Assembly (NCBI GenBank): GCA_040222015.1
Contig: JAVJWO010000178.1
Span: forward strand, 80,390-144,389
Direction: 5' to 3'
Source of the DNA: Coleofasciculus chthonoplastes F2-STO-03
GTDB taxonomy: Bacteria > Cyanobacteriota > Cyanobacteriia > Cyanobacteriales > Coleofasciculaceae
DNA length: 64,000 nt
Shown here: positions 5,807 through 24,470 of the stretch, one piece after another
Layout: each line of letters opens with the position of its first letter
How positions within the stretch are numbered: the first letter of the stretch is position 1
The notes under the pieces: model-generated
Told to the model about the DNA's origin: nothing
The model's input: only the letters and a program-made list of their open reading frames with translations
The model's database searches: none
Program-made: the position numbers and the translations under genes

Positions 5807-8800
5807 GTGGAACTTTGGACAGCGCTAGGCGTTTCTATCCTCAACGACTTACTTTTAAAAGACATCCTCCTGAAACTGGGGAAAGAAGCATTAGAAGACT
5901 ATGTAAAAGATTTTTTCAAAGACTGCATTAAAACCGGGGTACAATCTGCCCAACCCGATATCCTGAAAAAAGCCCTCGGTGAGGCTTTACAGCAATTTCT
6001 CAAACTCATCGAATATGAATTACTCTTCTATGTAACCGAAGCCGAAGTTCGAGACAACTATCAAATAGTAATTGAACGGTTTATCAAAGACGATGACGTT
6101 AAACCCCTGTTAGGAAAAGCCTTTGAAAAAGATTGTCGCGCCATCGACGCCAATCAATTAAGTACAATTTGGGTGCAGCGCTATTCACCTGATATGCCAA
6201 CTGGGTTTAACTGGGAGGAGATTACCAAACCCTATCTCAAAGAAGTTAAAAGCATTGTCCGCAATTCGCCAGAGTTAAAAGAACTGTTAAAATTAGAGAT
6301 TCTGGAATCCATTGAACAACAGGTTCGAGACAATGCCAAAATTAATCCTGATTTTAATATCACTAAATATCAAGAAGGCTTACGGGAACGCTACAGCAAC
6401 TTAAACCTATCCAGTTTAGATACAACAGGCTGCGCCTATAACCAACTGAAACTCTGGCGACTCTTCATCCCGCAAAATGTGCGACAAGTTCATCAGGGAT
6501 TACCCCAAGTCTATGAACTCCCCAAAGAACATCAACGGCGACTGCGAGAGAGTCATCTACTTGACGCGGATGTGTCTCTGGAAGAGTTAACCGAATATAA
6601 ACAGGTTTATTCTCAACAGCCAATCCGCCCCATCAATGAAATTATTAACGATAAAGATAACTATCCCTATCTGGTGATTCTCGGTGATCCGGGTTCTGGC
6701 AAGTCTACCTTGTTGCAATATTTGGCATTAGATTGGGCAAATTCTACACCGAATGATGCCAATTTTCATCCGATTCCCCTGCTGATTGAATTACGCACCT
6801 ATATGCGAAATCGCGACGCGGGACAATGTAAGAATTTCCTGGAATTTTTCCATGATAGCAGTGGAATTGTCTGTCATCTGAATCAGCATCAACTGGTGGA
6901 ACAGTTACAAGCCGGAAATGCTTTAGTCATGTTTGATGGCTTGGATGAGGTATTTGATCCGGGAAAACGGGAGGATGTGATTACCGATATTCATTGCTTC
7001 ACTAATGACTATCCTGATGTGCGGGTAATTGTCACCTCTCGCGTGATTGGCTATAAACCGCAGCGGTTACGAGATGCCCAATTTTATCATTTTATGCTGC
7101 AAGATTTAGAGGCAGATCAGATTCAGGAGTTTATTACCCGTTGGCATGATTTAACCTTTACCGATAAAGTAGATAAACAGAGGAAGTGGGAACGACTCCA
7201 ACGGGCAATTGATACCTCAAAAGCGATTCGCGAACTGGCTGGAAATCCGCTGCTATTGACAATGATGGCAATATTAAATCGCAATCAGGAATTACCCAGA
7301 GATAGACCCGAATTATACAACCAAGCGTCGCGGGTATTGCTGCATCAATGGGATGTGGAACGGGCGTTAGTCGAACATCAGCAGTTAGAGATTCAAACGA
7401 TTGATTATAAAGATAAGCAGGCGATGTTGCGTCAGGTGGCTTATCAGATGCAAGCAGCAGAGAAAGGTTTAGCGGGTAATCTGATTGCGGCGGATGAGTT
7501 AGAAAGAATTTTGACGGATTATCTGAAAACGCTAGATATCACTAATTCCAGGGCGGTGGCTAGGGTGATGATTAAGCAACTGCGGGAACGGAATTTTATC
7601 TTATGTTTCATGGGGGCAGATTATTATGCCTTTGTGCATCGGACATTTTTGGAGTATTTTTGTGCTTGGGAATATGTTTGGCAGTTTGAGAAGGAACGAA
7701 CAATTTCTCTGGAGGGGTTGAAAAGCGAGGTTTTTGGCAAGCATTGGCAGGATGAGTCTTGGCATGAAGTGTTACGGCTGATTGTGGGGATGATTGAGCC
7801 AAAGCTGGCTGGGGAGATTATAGATTATTTGATGAATCAGTCGGGGGAAGCGGAAAAGTTTATTAATGTGTTTCTAGCGGCGGATTGCCTGTCTGAGGCG
7901 AGGAATCGTTCGGTTATCATATCGACAGCGAATCAATTACTGAACCAGATTAAGGGGTTAATTCAGTATGACTTACCTTACCATTATGAATTTTATGAAG
8001 AGGAAGCAACGTTAGTTCGGGAAATTCGCACTCAAGCGGTTGCGGCAATTGCGACAACCTGGCATGATTCTCCAGACACCTTACCTTGGCTGAAACAAAA
8101 AGCTCAATTTGATAACGATTCTGCTGTGCGACAAGCAGCGATGCAAGAATTAGCCAGAGGATGGAAAGATGACCCCGACACCTTACCTATCCTCAAACAA
8201 AAAGCCCAATCTGATGACCATCCGGCTGTGCGAAGTGCAGCGGTGGAAGAAATAGCCAAAGGCTGGAAAGATGACCCAGATACCTTACCTTGGCTGAAAC
8301 AAAAAGCCCAATCTGATGACAATAGGTTTGTGCGACGTGCAGCGGTACAAGAATTAGCCAAAGGCTGGAAAGATGACCCAGACACCTTACCTTGGTTGAA
8401 ACAAAAAGCTCAATTTGATGACGATGAGGATGTGCGATATGCAGCGGTGGAAGAAATAGCCAAAGGCTGGAAAGATGACCCAGATACCTTACCTATACTC
8501 AAACAAAAAGCCCAATCTGATGACAATTGGGCTGTGCGAAGTGCAGCGGTGGAAGAATTAGCCAAAGGCTGGAAAGATGACCCAGATACCTTACCTTGGC
8601 TGAAACAAAAAGCCCAATCTGATGACCATTGGGATGTGCGACGTGCAGCGGTGCAAGAATTAGCCAAAGGCTGGAAGGATGAGCCATGGCTATTTGAATT
8701 ATTACGCGATCGCGCTCTCAATGATCCCTTTGTGCGCGAGGAAGACTGGCAAGACAATCCTCGGCAATTAGCTATTGAAATCATTATCAAACAATATCCT

Positions 8801-8911
8801 GATCATCCCCAGACTCTACCCTTACTGCGCGACAGAGACGAAAATGATCCTGATGAAAAAGTTAGAGAGTTTGCCCAGAAAAAATTGGCACAATTAAAGT
8901 TAAGTCTGTAG
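5807..8911 (+). CDS. NACHT (STAND) NTPase with N-terminal helical domain and C-terminal HEAT repeats
   Basis: Walker A GDPGSGKST, Walker B FDGLDE, VTSR, NPLLL, FVHRTFLEYF; six 34-aa HEAT-like repeats. Confidence 0.92.
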   Translation: MELWTALGVSILNDLLLKDILLKLGKEALEDYVKDFFKDCIKTGVQSAQPDILKKALGEALQQFLKLIEYELLFYVTEAEVRDNYQIVIERFIKDDDVKPLLGKAFEKDCRAIDANQLSTIWVQRYSPDMPTGFNWEEITKPYLKEVKSIVRNSPELKELLKLEILESIEQQVRDNAKINPDFNITKYQEGLRERYSNLNLSSLDTTGCAYNQLKLWRLFIPQNVRQVHQGLPQVYELPKEHQRRLRESHLLDADVSLEELTEYKQVYSQQPIRPINEIINDKDNYPYLVILGDPGSGKSTLLQYLALDWANSTPNDANFHPIPLLIELRTYMRNRDAGQCKNFLEFFHDSSGIVCHLNQHQLVEQLQAGNALVMFDGLDEVFDPGKREDVITDIHCFTNDYPDVRVIVTSRVIGYKPQRLRDAQFYHFMLQDLEADQIQEFITRWHDLTFTDKVDKQRKWERLQRAIDTSKAIRELAGNPLLLTMMAILNRNQELPRDRPELYNQASRVLLHQWDVERALVEHQQLEIQTIDYKDKQAMLRQVAYQMQAAEKGLAGNLIAADELERILTDYLKTLDITNSRAVARVMIKQLRERNFILCFMGADYYAFVHRTFLEYFCAWEYVWQFEKERTISLEGLKSEVFGKHWQDESWHEVLRLIVGMIEPKLAGEIIDYLMNQSGEAEKFINVFLAADCLSEARNRSVIISTANQLLNQIKGLIQYDLPYHYEFYEEEATLVREIRTQAVAAIATTWHDSPDTLPWLKQKAQFDNDSAVRQAAMQELARGWKDDPDTLPILKQKAQSDDHPAVRSAAVEEIAKGWKDDPDTLPWLKQKAQSDDNRFVRRAAVQELAKGWKDDPDTLPWLKQKAQFDDDEDVRYAAVEEIAKGWKDDPDTLPILKQKAQSDDNWAVRSAAVEELAKGWKDDPDTLPWLKQKAQSDDHWDVRRAAVQELAKGWKDEPWLFELLRDRALNDPFVREEDWQDNPRQLAIEIIIKQYPDHPQTLPLLRDRDENDPDEKVREFAQKKLAQLKLSL
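8072..8683 (+). repeat. Six tandem 102-bp coding repeats (HEAT units)
   Basis: Units start at 8072, 8174, 8276, 8378, 8480, 8582. Confidence 0.95.
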
Positions 8912-9272
8912 GGGCGGGTTTCACGACTATGTTTTGGGTTGCAAAGGTGCGTTAGCGAAGCGTAACGCACCCTACACCCGCCCCGACTCAGGTGTCTAGA
9001 CTTCCTGTTAAAAGAAAGGGCGATCCGATAAAATTAAATTGACACAGTTGTCAATTTGTGCAAGCGGGTCGCCCCTACCGGGAATTAAAAGGGCGATCGC
9101 TCTCGAAACGTGTTAAGAAAGATGGGTAATGATAGCGATCGGGAAAAAATCCCAGATAAAAATAATTAGAGACGCTATAGTAGGGTCACGGCACTGCCGT
9201 GACCTTATCGGTAGAACTACCGTATCCTGATGGAAATCTAATTATAATTTCTAAATAAACAGGTTAATTGCC

Positions 9273-9485
9273 TTCAACAACCCCACGCTACTGACGTGGA
9301 GCATGGGGATTGCAAGACAAATTGCATTTTAAACCGTTGAATACCGCGTAGAGTCTCAGTTTGGTACAGACATCCGGATACTTCCCTAGTCCGGATTACC
9401 TCTAAAACCTTTTGTCGGGTTGTTGTTAAGTCAAGACATCTTAACTGAGATGGCGGGAAGGGACTACACACTCTTACTCGGAGGT
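9273..9485 (+). ncRNA. omegaRNA (HEARO-like) scaffold upstream of isrB
   Basis: About 210-nt noncoding leader with TCAAC...GTTGAA pairing, TCCGGATACTTCCCTAGTCCGGA hairpin and downstream GGGAAGGGAC complementary to its loop, as in IscB/IsrB omegaRNAs. Confidence 0.8.
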
Positions 9486-10715
9486 TTATCACCATGTTGC
9501 GAGTACCAGTTTTATCGAAATCAGGTAAGCCATTAATGCCCACAAAACCTAGCCGTGCTAGACGTTGGCTTAAAGAAGGTAAAGCTAAAGTATTGTATAA
9601 CTACTTAGAATGTTTTGCTATTCAGCTAACATTTGAAACGGAAGAAAATACTCAGTCTGTAGCCGTGGGGATAGACCCTGGCAAGCGATATTCCGGGATT
9701 GGGGTTCAATCAAGTTTAGTTACCCTTTGGATGGGACACTTAGTTCTACCGTTCAAAACAGTCAAGGAACGGATGGAATTACGGCGAGTGATGCGTCGAG
9801 CAAGGCGGGGTAGACGAATTAACCGGAAGTTACCTTATTCTGAACGTTGCCATCGTCAAGCTCGGTTTGATAATCGCAAACAAGGTAAACTGCCGCCGTC
9901 AATTCGAGCTAATAAACAGCTTGAGTTACGGGTAGTCAAAGAGTTGTTCAAGCTATTCCCAATTAGTGCCATCCATTATGAATTAGTTATGGCGGATGTA
10001 GACAAGACGTGCGGACGTAAATCGGCTCGGTCTGGCGTTGGCTTTTCTCCAGTCATGGTAGGTCAGAGACAAATGCTAACTTGGTTATCTGAGTTAGCCC
10101 CTATTATCACCCATAAAGGATGGCACAGGGATGGTAACGGAACCAGTCAACTTAGGCAATGGTTAGGATTAGCCAAAGACAAAAAGAACAAGGCTAATCA
10201 GACGCCTGCAACTCATGCCGTTGACGGTGTAACCTTAGCCGCGTTCGAGTTCATCCAATGGCGTGAATGGCATTCCGATCATGCTAAACATGGTAGCTGG
10301 GTAGGTAATGTTCAAGTTACCCCCGCGCCGTTTGCGGTAATCCGTAGACCACCCGTTAGTCGTAGACAATTGCATCTATGTATTCCCTCTAAAGGTGGAC
10401 TACGGCGTAAGTATGGCGGCACAGTCACCCGTCATGGGTTTAGAAAAGGTGACAAAGTTATAGCCGAAAAAGCTGGAAAAACTTACATCGGTTGGTGTTC
10501 TGGAGACACCGATAAACTGGTTTCGGTTAGTGATATTAACTGGAAACGTTTAGGACAATTTAGTGTCAAAAAAGTCCAGTTGTTGCAGCGAAGCACGGGG
10601 TTAATTGTCGTGCCTGCAACTGGACCCTTCAAACCTCACCGCATCGAGCGGCGCGGTTTGACCTCTATCCCTCTCCACCCTGCTTCGCTGAGGGTGGAGT
10701 CTCACGAGAAATACG
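9273..10715 (+). mobile_element. IS200/IS605-superfamily IsrB-type element (non-autonomous, no TnpA)
   Basis: Left end TTCAACAACCCCACGCT...GCATGGGG hairpin; right-end hairpin CTCCACCCT...AGGGTGGAG followed by ATGA; encloses omegaRNA and ORF. Confidence 0.8.
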
Positions 10716-10792
10716 ATGAAGATCAGCACCCTATTGACTCCGGCACTCACCTCAACCCTGTTCGCTTCCCTAGGGTTAGGAGTGGTTGTTAG
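9494..10792 (+). CDS. isrB: IsrB-like RNA-guided nickase (PLMP/RRXRR family, split RuvC, no HNH)
   Basis: KPLMPTKPSRARR, RuvC-I GIDPG, Arg-rich bridge helix RRVMRRARRGRR, RuvC-II YE, RuvC-III THAVDG; no CxxC/HNH; tail after about 10625 probably frameshifted. Confidence 0.8.
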   Translation: MLRVPVLSKSGKPLMPTKPSRARRWLKEGKAKVLYNYLECFAIQLTFETEENTQSVAVGIDPGKRYSGIGVQSSLVTLWMGHLVLPFKTVKERMELRRVMRRARRGRRINRKLPYSERCHRQARFDNRKQGKLPPSIRANKQLELRVVKELFKLFPISAIHYELVMADVDKTCGRKSARSGVGFSPVMVGQRQMLTWLSELAPIITHKGWHRDGNGTSQLRQWLGLAKDKKNKANQTPATHAVDGVTLAAFEFIQWREWHSDHAKHGSWVGNVQVTPAPFAVIRRPPVSRRQLHLCIPSKGGLRRKYGGTVTRHGFRKGDKVIAEKAGKTYIGWCSGDTDKLVSVSDINWKRLGQFSVKKVQLLQRSTGLIVVPATGPFKPHRIERRGLTSIPLHPASLRVESHEKYDEDQHPIDSGTHLNPVRFPRVRSGC

Positions 10793-11105
10793 CATATCAG
10801 CCATTATCCCTGAATCCGCGATCGCACAAACCACTGAACGGGTGAATCCCCTAGAAGATCTCGATAGTCGCCAAAATGAGCGAGATTCACTCACGGGAAC
10901 CCCGGGTAACGGTGGCTGGAATGTCTTTGATTTTATCCATCGCTCCCGTTTAGGAGTTGATTCGGAAGCATTTAACAGCGAACTCGATCAAAAGCTAGAC
11001 AATGCGACAGAGGAGTTCCGGCGGCTACAACGGGAACGGTTAAGAAATCAACAGCAAGTTCAACCGAATTCCCCCTCTACTCCGGCTGGGGGAGGCATTA
11101 GATAA
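10716..11105 (+). CDS. Hypothetical secreted protein
   Basis: Signal-peptide-like N-terminus ending in AIAQ; low-complexity C-terminus. Confidence 0.75.
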   Translation: MKISTLLTPALTSTLFASLGLGVVVSISAIIPESAIAQTTERVNPLEDLDSRQNERDSLTGTPGNGGWNVFDFIHRSRLGVDSEAFNSELDQKLDNATEEFRRLQRERLRNQQQVQPNSPSTPAGGGIR

Positions 11106-11143
11106 GTGAAACCATTCCCAGGCAAAGCCTGGGAACAAGGCGG

Positions 11144-11578
11144 CTAGCTCATGCTAGCTAGGATATCCTTAGCATGGGAATCGGTTTTCACCTTCTCATC
11201 AACATAGGTGATCGTACCTTCACCATTAATCACATACGTGACGCGCTTGGAGTAACCGCCGCCTTCAACATCATAAGCTTTGGTAAGCGTGCCATCCGGA
11301 TCAGCGAGCAATTGGAAAGGCAACCCATACTTCTCCTTAAATTGCTTATGGGATGTCTCATCATCCATGCTCACACCGAGAACAACCATATCTTTGCCTT
11401 GATATTCAGCATAGTTGTCCCGGAAGCTTTGGGCTTCCTTGGTGCAACCTGGAGTATCATCTTTGGGATAAAAATAGAGAACTACTGTTTTTCCCGCCAA
11501 GTCGGACAGGGAAACGGTATTCCCTGCATCATCTTTAGCAGTAAATGCCGGAGCTTTATCGCCAACGCTTAAAGCCAT
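11144..11578 (-). CDS. bcp: Peroxiredoxin Q / BCP
   Basis: YFYPKDDTPGCTKEA motif. Confidence 0.93.
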   Translation of the reverse strand: MALSVGDKAPAFTAKDDAGNTVSLSDLAGKTVVLYFYPKDDTPGCTKEAQSFRDNYAEYQGKDMVVLGVSMDDETSHKQFKEKYGLPFQLLADPDGTLTKAYDVEGGGYSKRVTYVINGEGTITYVDEKVKTDSHAKDILASMS

Positions 11579-22909: not shown

Positions 22910-24470
22910 GCTTAGATTTCTTAACCCTAAAGGTGAAGCATTGCAGGCTCCGTTAGAGTGGCAGCCCGGTTTTATAGAAATTCAAGTCCCTAAAAATAAA
23001 TGGGAAGAGGTGCGGCTTTGGCGGCAGGGTGAAGAACTCTCAATCTCCCTAAAACGTTTGGCTAACAAGGCTCGAATCCTGGCTGATTGGCATCGCTCAA
23101 ATACGGGTTACTATCGTCTGCGACTTGAATATCAGGGTGAAATTGAGGAGCAGATTATCACAGTTTGGTCTCAAAAGATTAGCCGCACAGCTTTTGCTCA
23201 GATGCTAGAGGATTTGGATGCTAGTCTCCCAACCGCAGTAGCCATAGGATTACAACGGATTGGTGCTTTAGCTAGTCTCAAATTGCCACAACCAGGTGAG
23301 ACGACTTTAGCACAGGAAATAGTTCGCCTGCGTCGAGCTATCAATGGCACAGAAAACCGACCCGGGCTTATTAATATTCTGCGTCAAATTGCTGATAACC
23401 CTTACCAAATTCTCAACACTAATGAGATTTGGGTTAGGCAAGAGCAAGTTCGCCGACCTTCTATTAGTGGGCTAGTTCAGGCTTTTAGTCGAGGACATAA
23501 CCTAGATGCTAATGGGCGACCTATTCGCGTACCTGATACACGAGTAGAACATACTATTGATGTTTATGAAAATCAGGTAGTTAAGTTGTTTTTTGAGCTA
23601 GTCAATCAAAGACTGCGACGAGTTCGATATGTCTTTGACGCTGACCCAAGAGGTAAGCCTCTGGATGAATTAAATTCTCTGTTTGCACAACTGAAAAAGG
23701 CTCGACAGCAAGCTGCTTTTCTCGACCAGGTAAGTCAGCTTAAACGGCAACCCAATCAAATCACGATGGTTCTCTTAAAGCGCCCACCTTACCATGCCGC
23801 TTTAGAAGGGTATCTAGAATTTATCAGAAGTCTGACAGTGCGATTGGAAGAATCACACCTCGATGCCCCTTTAAAGAATCTTCCTCATCTCTATCAGGTT
23901 TGGGGGACGCTTTGGGTAATAGAAACACTGCTGAAAGTCGCTCACCAAGAAGGATACCAGGTAGAAAAACAGTGCTTGGTGGGTCGGGATAAAAGCGGCA
24001 TCTATGTACGGGTTCTACCTAATAATCAGCCAGCATTAGTTTTAATTCACCCTCAGCACCAAAGGAGAGTAAAGTTAATTCCAGAACGAACCTATGGACA
24101 AGATGGTGAACTACGCAGCGCCAGTGTTAAACTTCGTCCTGATATAGCAGTAGAAATCGAGCGACTTGATGGTTCTCAACAGGTTTACCTTTTTGACCCT
24201 AAGTATAAACTCGATAGTGAAACACAGGACAATCTAGGTAATCAAGGAAAGCCGAAGACAGCAGATATCCAAAAAATGCATACCTATCATGACGCCATCC
24301 ACGATAGAACGGGTAATCAAGTTGTGCAATATGCGGCGATTCTTTACCCGGGTTCCTATAAGTCATATTCCGGAGGAGAAATTGAGGCGCTTCCAGCCTA
24401 TCCTGGAAATGAGGCTAAACTACAGCAGCACCTGTATCCTGTGTTAGAGAACGCCCTCACGGTTGTGTAA
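22887..24470 (+). CDS. McrC-like nuclease (DUF2357 plus PD-(D/E)XK)
   Basis: TIDVYENQVVK (DUF2357-type), LRPDI...FDPKYK, DIQKMHTYHDAI; overlaps the mcrB stop. Confidence 0.88.
   Translation: MDLPPTSKLRFLNPKGEALQAPLEWQPGFIEIQVPKNKWEEVRLWRQGEELSISLKRLANKARILADWHRSNTGYYRLRLEYQGEIEEQIITVWSQKISRTAFAQMLEDLDASLPTAVAIGLQRIGALASLKLPQPGETTLAQEIVRLRRAINGTENRPGLINILRQIADNPYQILNTNEIWVRQEQVRRPSISGLVQAFSRGHNLDANGRPIRVPDTRVEHTIDVYENQVVKLFFELVNQRLRRVRYVFDADPRGKPLDELNSLFAQLKKARQQAAFLDQVSQLKRQPNQITMVLLKRPPYHAALEGYLEFIRSLTVRLEESHLDAPLKNLPHLYQVWGTLWVIETLLKVAHQEGYQVEKQCLVGRDKSGIYVRVLPNNQPALVLIHPQHQRRVKLIPERTYGQDGELRSASVKLRPDIAVEIERLDGSQQVYLFDPKYKLDSETQDNLGNQGKPKTADIQKMHTYHDAIHDRTGNQVVQYAAILYPGSYKSYSGGEIEALPAYPGNEAKLQQHLYPVLENALTVV

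Follow-up and report, generated by a model that had tools for sequence, protein, structure and literature searches.

An IsrB element between the leader and the ATGA start of a cyanobacterial gene: landing sites, predicted target recognition and a possible route of spread

The closest described relatives of the element analysed here come from two bodies of work. For the cyanobacterial element ISC1-1_MA, an N/ATGA target (the slash marks the insertion point) and a CG-3' end have been reported (Kapitonov 2016, PMC4810608), and IS200/IS605 elements recognise their target through four bases located at the 5' foot of an end hairpin (He 2011; Meers 2023, 10.1101/2023.03.14.532601). For the nickase DtIsrB, the wild-type protein cuts ATGA and not ATGG, the Q326R variant cuts both, and the cyanobacterial IsrBs that were assayed use an NTG TAM, not ATGA (Hirano 2022, PMC9581776). 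Two further observations concern spread. Donor-joint cutting restores ISGst elements (Meers 2023), and a 2026 review (PMC13565253), which also relates the IS605 plasmid gene drive of Mears et al., regards homing into orthologous empty sites as theoretically possible and supported for TnpB on plasmids. In the literature that we searched, no title or abstract states homing by IsrB or IscB, none of the texts consulted describes it for IsrB, and no title or abstract states landing on start codons by such elements. The main text of Kapitonov 2016 lacks the words 'codon', 'initiation', 'ribosom' and 'intergenic', and start-codon landing is not discussed there.

The element studied here lies in a window of 64,000 nt, the whole stretch of Coleofasciculus chthonoplastes F2-STO-03 DNA that was analysed (Table 1). 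It is an ordinary member of the ISC1/IsrB family with an already published target, and the named records of its family are from Coleofasciculus. Its left flank, AACAGGTTAATTGCC (9258-9272), gives way at 9273 to the first element bases, TTCAAC, and its last bases, TACG, end at 10715; the preliminary description had placed ATGA directly against this right end, and all its coordinates hold. Six genomes of the genus have the host gene. Two are filled, the focal genome and that of another species representative (G005), in which the element is inserted at the same base, and four are empty (G001, G007, G002 and G008). Three of the empty alleles (G001, G007 and G002) read AACAGGTTAATTGCC/ATGAA, letter for letter the leader-ATG junction that excision of 9273-10715 had been predicted to restore, and G008 has that junction with substitutions; the search for empty alleles proposed earlier thus found what it sought. 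Contigs from two of the four sequencing runs compared (X16 and X19) likewise join 9272 to 10716 and skip 1443 nt; the runs X15-X19 are contigs with shares under 0.1, and bear on sequence joints, not on expression. No further filled allele of the focal site was present in the metagenome contigs searched. Insertion was precise, beside a 4-nt target and without duplication of it, as in ISC1 and IS200/IS605 elements. Between 8900 and 9230 the window also contains several short palindromic repeats, of which related genomes and the runs have very many, and similar short inserts occur inside element ends.

Table 1. Features of the element and its host gene, in window positions
Feature	Position	Strand	Remarks
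IsrB (ISC1) insertion sequence, non-autonomous	9273-10715	+	1443 nt; ends TTCA...CG; no target duplication; based on empty alleles, the 9272-10716 joint and paralog ends
Predicted 20-nt guide, equal to the native leader of the host gene	9253-9272	+	Host DNA outside the element; adjoins its 5' end, and the ATG in empty alleles
Predicted omegaRNA scaffold	9273-9493	+	HEARO match and covariation; lone strand folds at shuffle level
Subterminal hairpin (9281-9308) and predicted TnpA DNA guide CAAT (9309-9312)	9281-9312	-	Cleavage site TGAA; IS605 'right end'; DNA fold
isrB ORF	9494-10792	+	432 aa; PLMP 13-16; RuvC D61/E163/H241/D244; R352/Q355; ~45 extra C-terminal residues
Subterminal hairpin (10673-10699) and predicted TnpA DNA guide GAGA (10700-10703)	10673-10703	-	Target TCAT; IS605 'left end'; covarying stem
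ATGA: transposition target, predicted TAM and host-gene start codon	10716-10719	+	Junction, Q/R covariation, target in Kapitonov 2016
Intact host gene, 129-aa cyanobacterial hypothetical protein	10716-11105	+	Signal-peptide-like N-terminus (by eye); matches in 52 of 61 genomes

The encoded protein bears out the earlier assignment to an OMEGA element with a PLMP/RuvC ORF and no HNH domain. It matches the Pfam RRXRR model (E 3.6e-51) and aligns continuously with DtIsrB (8DMB) over residues 2-370 (E 2.6e-47), without an HNH insert; it has the PLMP domain and a split RuvC domain with bridge helix, and it keeps the RuvC catalytic residues as well as the TAM-reading pair, R352 and Q355 of a WKRLGQF motif at 350 corresponding to R323 and Q326 of DtIsrB. 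The phosphate-lock residue Asn265 of DtIsrB is aligned with an Ile. An HNH-bearing IscB was rejected as an identity, the NCBIfam guided_IscB model scoring 124.8 bits, below its cut-off of 175, over the N-terminal part only; IscB chains align mainly to residues 4-119. Values of dN/dS of 0.04-0.09 against copies of the same clade indicate purifying selection. The focal isrB lacks the usual stop, which in most copies lies ~55 nt before the element's end, and continues for 77 nt within the host gene, in a different frame. Such reading past the ATG is found in 12 of 35 isrB copies, including the closest sibling, which is itself at a non-start site.

A structured omegaRNA upstream of the ORF is indicated by covariation beyond both controls. 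Two-sided changes are seen in 23 of 48 pairs (17 copies aligned, 16 distinct, with 11 further 5' ends left out that lack the end motif used for cutting), a level reached by none of 500 shuffles, and slid controls give 3-8 pairs. The covariance-model search suggested in the preliminary description returned an Rfam HEARO match at 9273-9469 with an E-value of 1.9e-4, although its 34.4 bits stay below the gathering score of 83, and folding of the single strand was no better than for shuffles (z -1.3). The guide position, read from the known IsrB layout (Hirano 2022, PMC9581776), is predicted to be the one assigned earlier. That this guide coincides with a translation-initiation region, as claimed earlier, is a by-product of the landing position, and no regulatory role was found. 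Promoter and terminator scans of 8880-11200 gave counts at shuffle level, with no plus-strand terminator in the element.

What directs such an element to ATGA? On the minus strand, one end of the focal element reads TCAT/...GAGA-hairpin and the other CAAT-hairpin...TGAA/, subterminal hairpins with guides matching the cleavage sites, in the layout of He 2011. Of the ends collected in the genus, 63 of the 64 that border ATGA have GAGA as the guide, and 15 of the 16 that border ATGG have GGGA or GGAA. Both focal ends fit the position-by-position pairing rule that we take to be that of IS608, on which the exact matching rests, and so, judged by eye, do the TTGA, GTGG and TTCA ends of other IS605-type families. 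Since the element ends carry these guides and an N/ATGA target has been published, ATGA is first of all the transposase target, with a matching DNA guide within the end of the element. The genome has 17 Y1_Tnp matches, 16 of them over the cut-off, as candidates for a transposase that would mobilise the focal element in trans. Gene-less miniatures with both ends and ATGA flanks were also seen (C57 near 12835 and C208 near 23520-23900, both in G000, L134 and L117), of 31, 391, 218 and 402 nt, that of 31 nt having no hairpin.

The same four bases are the predicted TAM. The residue matching Q326 of DtIsrB is Q in all 55 ATGA copies and R in all 12 ATGG copies, among the 67 of 86 distinct sites that kept the TI motif. 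In a tree of 39 intact proteins, a single 15-row clade of poor resolution contains Q/ATGA and R/ATGG copies intermixed, so that the link between flank and residue is not only a deep split. This covariation of the TAM-reading residue with the flank gives good indirect support to ATGA as the probable TAM of the focal IsrB, as proposed earlier; the NTG TAM of the assayed cyanobacterial IsrBs speaks against it. More distant IsrB copies (52-56% identity; contigs C162, C170 and C179 of G000) have TTGA flanks and the same Q residue.

Our preferred reading, to which we give a probability of about 0.68, is that a non-autonomous IsrB element sits between the leader and the ATG of an intact gene; that a Y1 transposase supplied in trans, with ATGA as its target, likely inserted it there; and that it likely maintains and spreads itself by nicking empty copies of the site with the old leader as guide. 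GAGA, the minus-strand DNA guide of the element end, would fix the target as ATGA, and insertions would survive where no coding sequence is broken and the region is transcribed in the sense direction, the latter since a guide made of host DNA would have to be transcribed from upstream. Host transcription would then read the leader, the omegaRNA, isrB and finally the host gene, whose translation presumably starts from the final bases of the element. IsrB with its omegaRNA would recognise leader plus ATGA, a combination present only in empty alleles, and nick it, and repair from a filled copy would follow. Such conversion would take place within a cell, occasionally on DNA exchanged between species.

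The part of this reading that concerns spread draws on sites shared between genomes. At the focal site the G005 element shows 3 differences in 1443 nt; there are none from 9187 to 9640, and divergence is ~10 per 100 nt from 10830. Of the neighbouring genes, bcp is 97.2% identical and the NACHT gene 86-89%. Of 357 1-kb windows of G005 (~360 kb), 201 could be aligned, with a median identity of 93.6%, and the element window alone reached at least 99%, the next best being 98.8%. At a pdxH site shared by G005 and G002 the common 3' 721 nt are identical between flanks of 95.2 and 93.9%, and at a site shared by G007 and G001 (L219/L188) the element is 99.1-100% identical between flanks of 92.8 and 95.0%; the first flank differences lie 30 and 27 nt from the junctions in the former and 99 and 52 nt in the latter. 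Three of the six sites shared between genomes show a clean contrast of element and flank, the murQ site offers 4 differences in the 50 nt available, and the other two are uninformative or mixed. At the focal site the downstream tract has no measurable length, since empty alleles too are near-identical over the host gene's first 100 nt. The signal-peptide-coding stretch 10716-10800 has 0-1 differences among G000, G001, G005 and G007, the rest being ~10% different, and has possibly been homogenised by earlier conversion events.

Near-identity at shared sites could instead have arisen without any part played by IsrB, through ordinary exchange of DNA, independent insertions repeated at one site, or chimeric assembly. 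Near-identical pieces of the focal subfamily do occur in other populations, at a TnpB site common to G006 and G007 the identity of 99-100% extends over 2 kb of flank, so that some pairs of genomes share recent DNA for other reasons, one metagenome site gives mixed signals, and several relatives are metagenome-assembled. No other window of the 201 is at 99%, however, and the tracts end within ~30-100 nt of the junctions, which is short for plain recombination. Independent insertion is opposed by the expectation of ~0.26 coincident pairs, against six seen, and by the copies at different sites, which are mostly only 82-89% alike. We consider this explanation unlikely, although it is the most serious of the alternatives. 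From the near-identity at shared sites we infer a homing-like spread across species. The wider proposal, which makes IsrB elements homing parasites of translation starts, driven by their nickase and entering the corresponding start codon of neighbouring species with co-conversion tracts of less than 100 nt, is tentative, and we would put it at somewhat worse than even odds.

Why should a start codon be the landing site at all? We gathered 3' ends throughout the genus and in other records with patterns, an HMM and a covariance model, all stopping before the target; left out were five weak or partial HMM matches, model matches below 55 bits, a strong end that no ATG follows (L220) and an end at a contig edge. 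The resulting 86 sites comprise 64 ATGA and 16 ATGG sites in the genus and 6 ATGA sites in other records. By a rule applied mechanically (an ORF of at least 60 aa with a coding score >5), a gene is opened at 21, 4 and 3 of these, respectively. The tabulation of flanks proposed earlier therefore finds ATGA at a start in a third of cases, the remaining 43 of the 64 lying elsewhere. Among the genes opened are folD, ftsH, pyrF-pyrE, murE, sepF, pdxH, murQ, ndhK/nuoB and those for an acyl carrier protein and Rubisco activase, and 18 of the 24 ORFs scanned have a family. Compared with the bases immediately preceding the orthologous ATGA of G000, the left flank agrees at 16 or more of 20 positions in 13 of 18 testable copies and fails to do so in 5.

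Expectations were taken from a self-trained gene caller on one genome, G000 (6771 genes; 67,767 ATGA), the element contexts being called slightly differently. Of all ATGA, 4.3% pass the start rule outside coding sequence, so that 21 of 64 is a 7.6-fold excess (p 1e-13); the share at starts is 15.8% among non-disruptive ATGA (p 6e-4), 20.3% when contexts against both neighbours are removed (p 0.013) and 24.2% among non-disruptive sense-transcribed sites (p 0.07, not significant), all these p values being somewhat overstated because sites share element and host ancestry. A conservative count of 17 of 63, from which three doubtful starts and one degenerate remnant are dropped, gives p 0.016, 0.13 and 0.35 against the last three. 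Insertions are nearly absent from coding sequence, none of the 20 non-start sites is against both neighbours (expected 28.5%, p 0.001), and a same-strand gene lies downstream of 42 of 53 sites (expected 55%). An upstream orientation bias has been reported for iscB (Meers 2023, 10.1101/2023.03.14.532601).

The simplest reading is that two filters operate, no broken gene and sense transcription, and that a start codon passes both. As start codons meet both conditions for survival, about one third of the surviving copies would lie there with no start-seeking mechanism, and the census shows none beyond the non-disruptive sense-transcribed null (p 0.07; 0.35 conservative). The idea that start codons are safe landing sites holds in so far as insertion there is tolerated: 21 of 64 ATGA copies are at starts, and murE, sepF and folD, genes required for growth, are single-copy in the filled genomes. 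A preference for start codons is not shown, two thirds of the copies being elsewhere and the excess over the sense null not significant; selection and orientation bias explain most of the pattern.

Other sources add a few cases. The metagenome set holds mostly the same sites, its new ones being at starts in 1 of 5 ATGA and 1 of 1 ATGG cases. Seven full-length plasmid IsrB records include three whose element, judged by eye, ends before ATGA, and in two cases this ATG is the start of the following gene. In plasmid alpha of Nostoc PCC 7120 (L302:2658) the IsrB end abuts an ATG in frame with dpdE, seven codons (21 nt) before the annotated GTG, and this ATG is likely the true start; in a Dolichospermum plasmid the ATG after the element is the annotated start of an HTH gene. 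A control TnpB family with the same end and ATGA target was not found in numbers, TnpB ends having GTGG, TTGA or TTCA flanks. Nine TnpB-like elements (L226-L234), eight of them in G002, lie antisense with a related end and a GTGG flank.

Active targeting, in which the transposase or IsrB prefers ATGA at starts, for example in single-stranded or ribosome-linked DNA, and the element end has evolved to supply a ribosome-binding site, would account for the 33% at starts, which is above every null (20%, p 0.013; 24%, p 0.07). It would also account for the many ends with GAGG 6-8 nt before the ATG and for a median anti-SD energy of -6.2 at starts against -3.0 elsewhere. The conservative count of 17 of 63 takes the p values to 0.13 and 0.35, however, and GAGG is not significantly associated with starts (Fisher p 0.15). 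The GAG of element ends covaries with an upstream CTC and is therefore likely structural, the focal end has no GAGG (-3.0), and only one of four recent identical ATGG copies in G002 is at a start. We regard active targeting as distinctly improbable. The four G002 copies (L210-L213) are intact ATGG-family IsrB elements at different sites, a recent burst and a good candidate for an active element.

The ATG at 10716 is the conserved start of the 129-aa protein, for which no family was found in Pfam or NCBIfam and whose Atlas neighbours are unnamed. In family-level relatives the gene lies directly 3' of an ABC permease gene, and is thus likely an operon gene; in the focal genome a NACHT/HEAT-repeat gene (5807-8911; NNH2, NACHT, HEAT_2) lies between them, is missing there in those relatives and matches an anti-phage model weakly, far below the cut-off. 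A database entry begins the protein at residue 23, probably owing to the isrB overlap. The earlier statement that the host ORF stays intact and gains a new leader is right for the ORF and the leader, but isrB overlaps its first 77 nt. With an assumed anti-SD motif, the energies are -3.7 kcal/mol for the native leader, about the same (-3.0) for the new one and -2.3 for the genome median; no 16S 3' end was found in the assembly. The restored leader, once described as a plausible RBS-spacer-ATG, is supported by the junction, but its native RBS is weak. Donation of a Shine-Dalgarno sequence by the element end was rejected, as it shows no significant link with starts (Fisher p 0.15; paired native and new leaders p 0.64, n=15), and so was mimicry of the native leader by that end (permutation p 0.052 over 35 pairs, one case driving the result).

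At the pyrF-pyrE start (L100, minus strand; also L269 and L282) the usual element end is replaced: the 12 nt preceding the ATG agree in 11 of 12 positions with the final 12 nt of the left flank. The new junction thus comes close to reproducing the native leader. As IsrB nicks 8-11 nt upstream of the TAM (Hirano 2022, PMC9581776), the restored leader may be a repair scar.

A domesticated regulator, IsrB and omegaRNA binding the translation-initiation region of the host gene in the manner of the TnpB-derived TldR repressors, would make sense of a guide that equals the leader and of an isrB that reads across the host ATG. The filled allele, however, parts the guide from ATGA by 1443 nt and hence offers no target; of 28 other genomic guide matches (3-4 mismatches), none is followed by ATGA and two by another NTGA. 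The catalytic residues are intact, the insertion is missing from four of the six congeners with the gene, and the read-through is common to the sibling copy at a non-start site. A TldR-like repressor, a dead nuclease with a guide-matched, TAM-flanked genomic target, is thus not what we find, and this explanation is very improbable. Mere coincidence, with ATGA containing ATG, the motif set by transposition chemistry, 43 of 64 sites not at starts and landing there without consequence for survival, is scarcely credible given the 7.6-fold excess over all ATGA (p 1e-13) and the near-absence from coding sequence, and is contradicted by the census.

With the target already known from Kapitonov 2016 (PMC4810608), what is new here is the landing-site census with its nulls, which puts numbers on selection versus targeting in start-codon 'safe landing', a naturally occurring Q/R switch in step with the target base, and a homing-like signature across species. 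If the homing reading is true, docking between the leader and the ATG of conserved genes would provide a host promoter, a conserved guide, a conserved TAM and near-harmlessness, and would play for these elements the role that splicing has for homing introns and inteins. In the literature consulted, only TnpB and IscB have a demonstrated part in retention and drive. With its filled and empty allele pairs, Q/R switch and cross-species signature, the focal family makes nick-driven homing directly testable.

Finally, how does the focal element compare with its relatives? Like ISC1-1_MA of Microcystis aeruginosa NIES-843 (Kapitonov, Makarova, Koonin 2016, PMC4810608), it is cyanobacterial and non-autonomous and encodes an HNH-less IscB1 (= IsrB); it shares the N/ATGA target, the CG-3' end and the lack of target duplication, and differs in a 5' end of TT rather than GT. 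With DtIsrB of Desulfovirgula thermocuniculi (8DMB; PMC9581776) it shares the PLMP domain, split RuvC, bridge helix, TI domain and R323/Q326, whereas its omegaRNA is shorter (a scaffold of ~220 nt, against 284 nt with guide in DtIsrB), Asn265 is replaced by Ile, a read-through tail of ~45 residues is added, and its activity is predicted. The IscB and TnpB of ISGst elements (Meers 2023, 10.1101/2023.03.14.532601) likewise have a TAM that is the transposon-adjacent target and show an upstream orientation bias, and the GstIscB TAM, TTCAT, is ATGAA on the other strand. The enzymes of ISGst and of the IS605 drive make double-strand breaks (PMC13565253; 10.1101/2023.03.14.532601), whereas IsrB is a nickase, and the sign of spread seen for the focal element is chromosomal and between species, compared with the plasmid gene drive of IS605 (PMC13565253).
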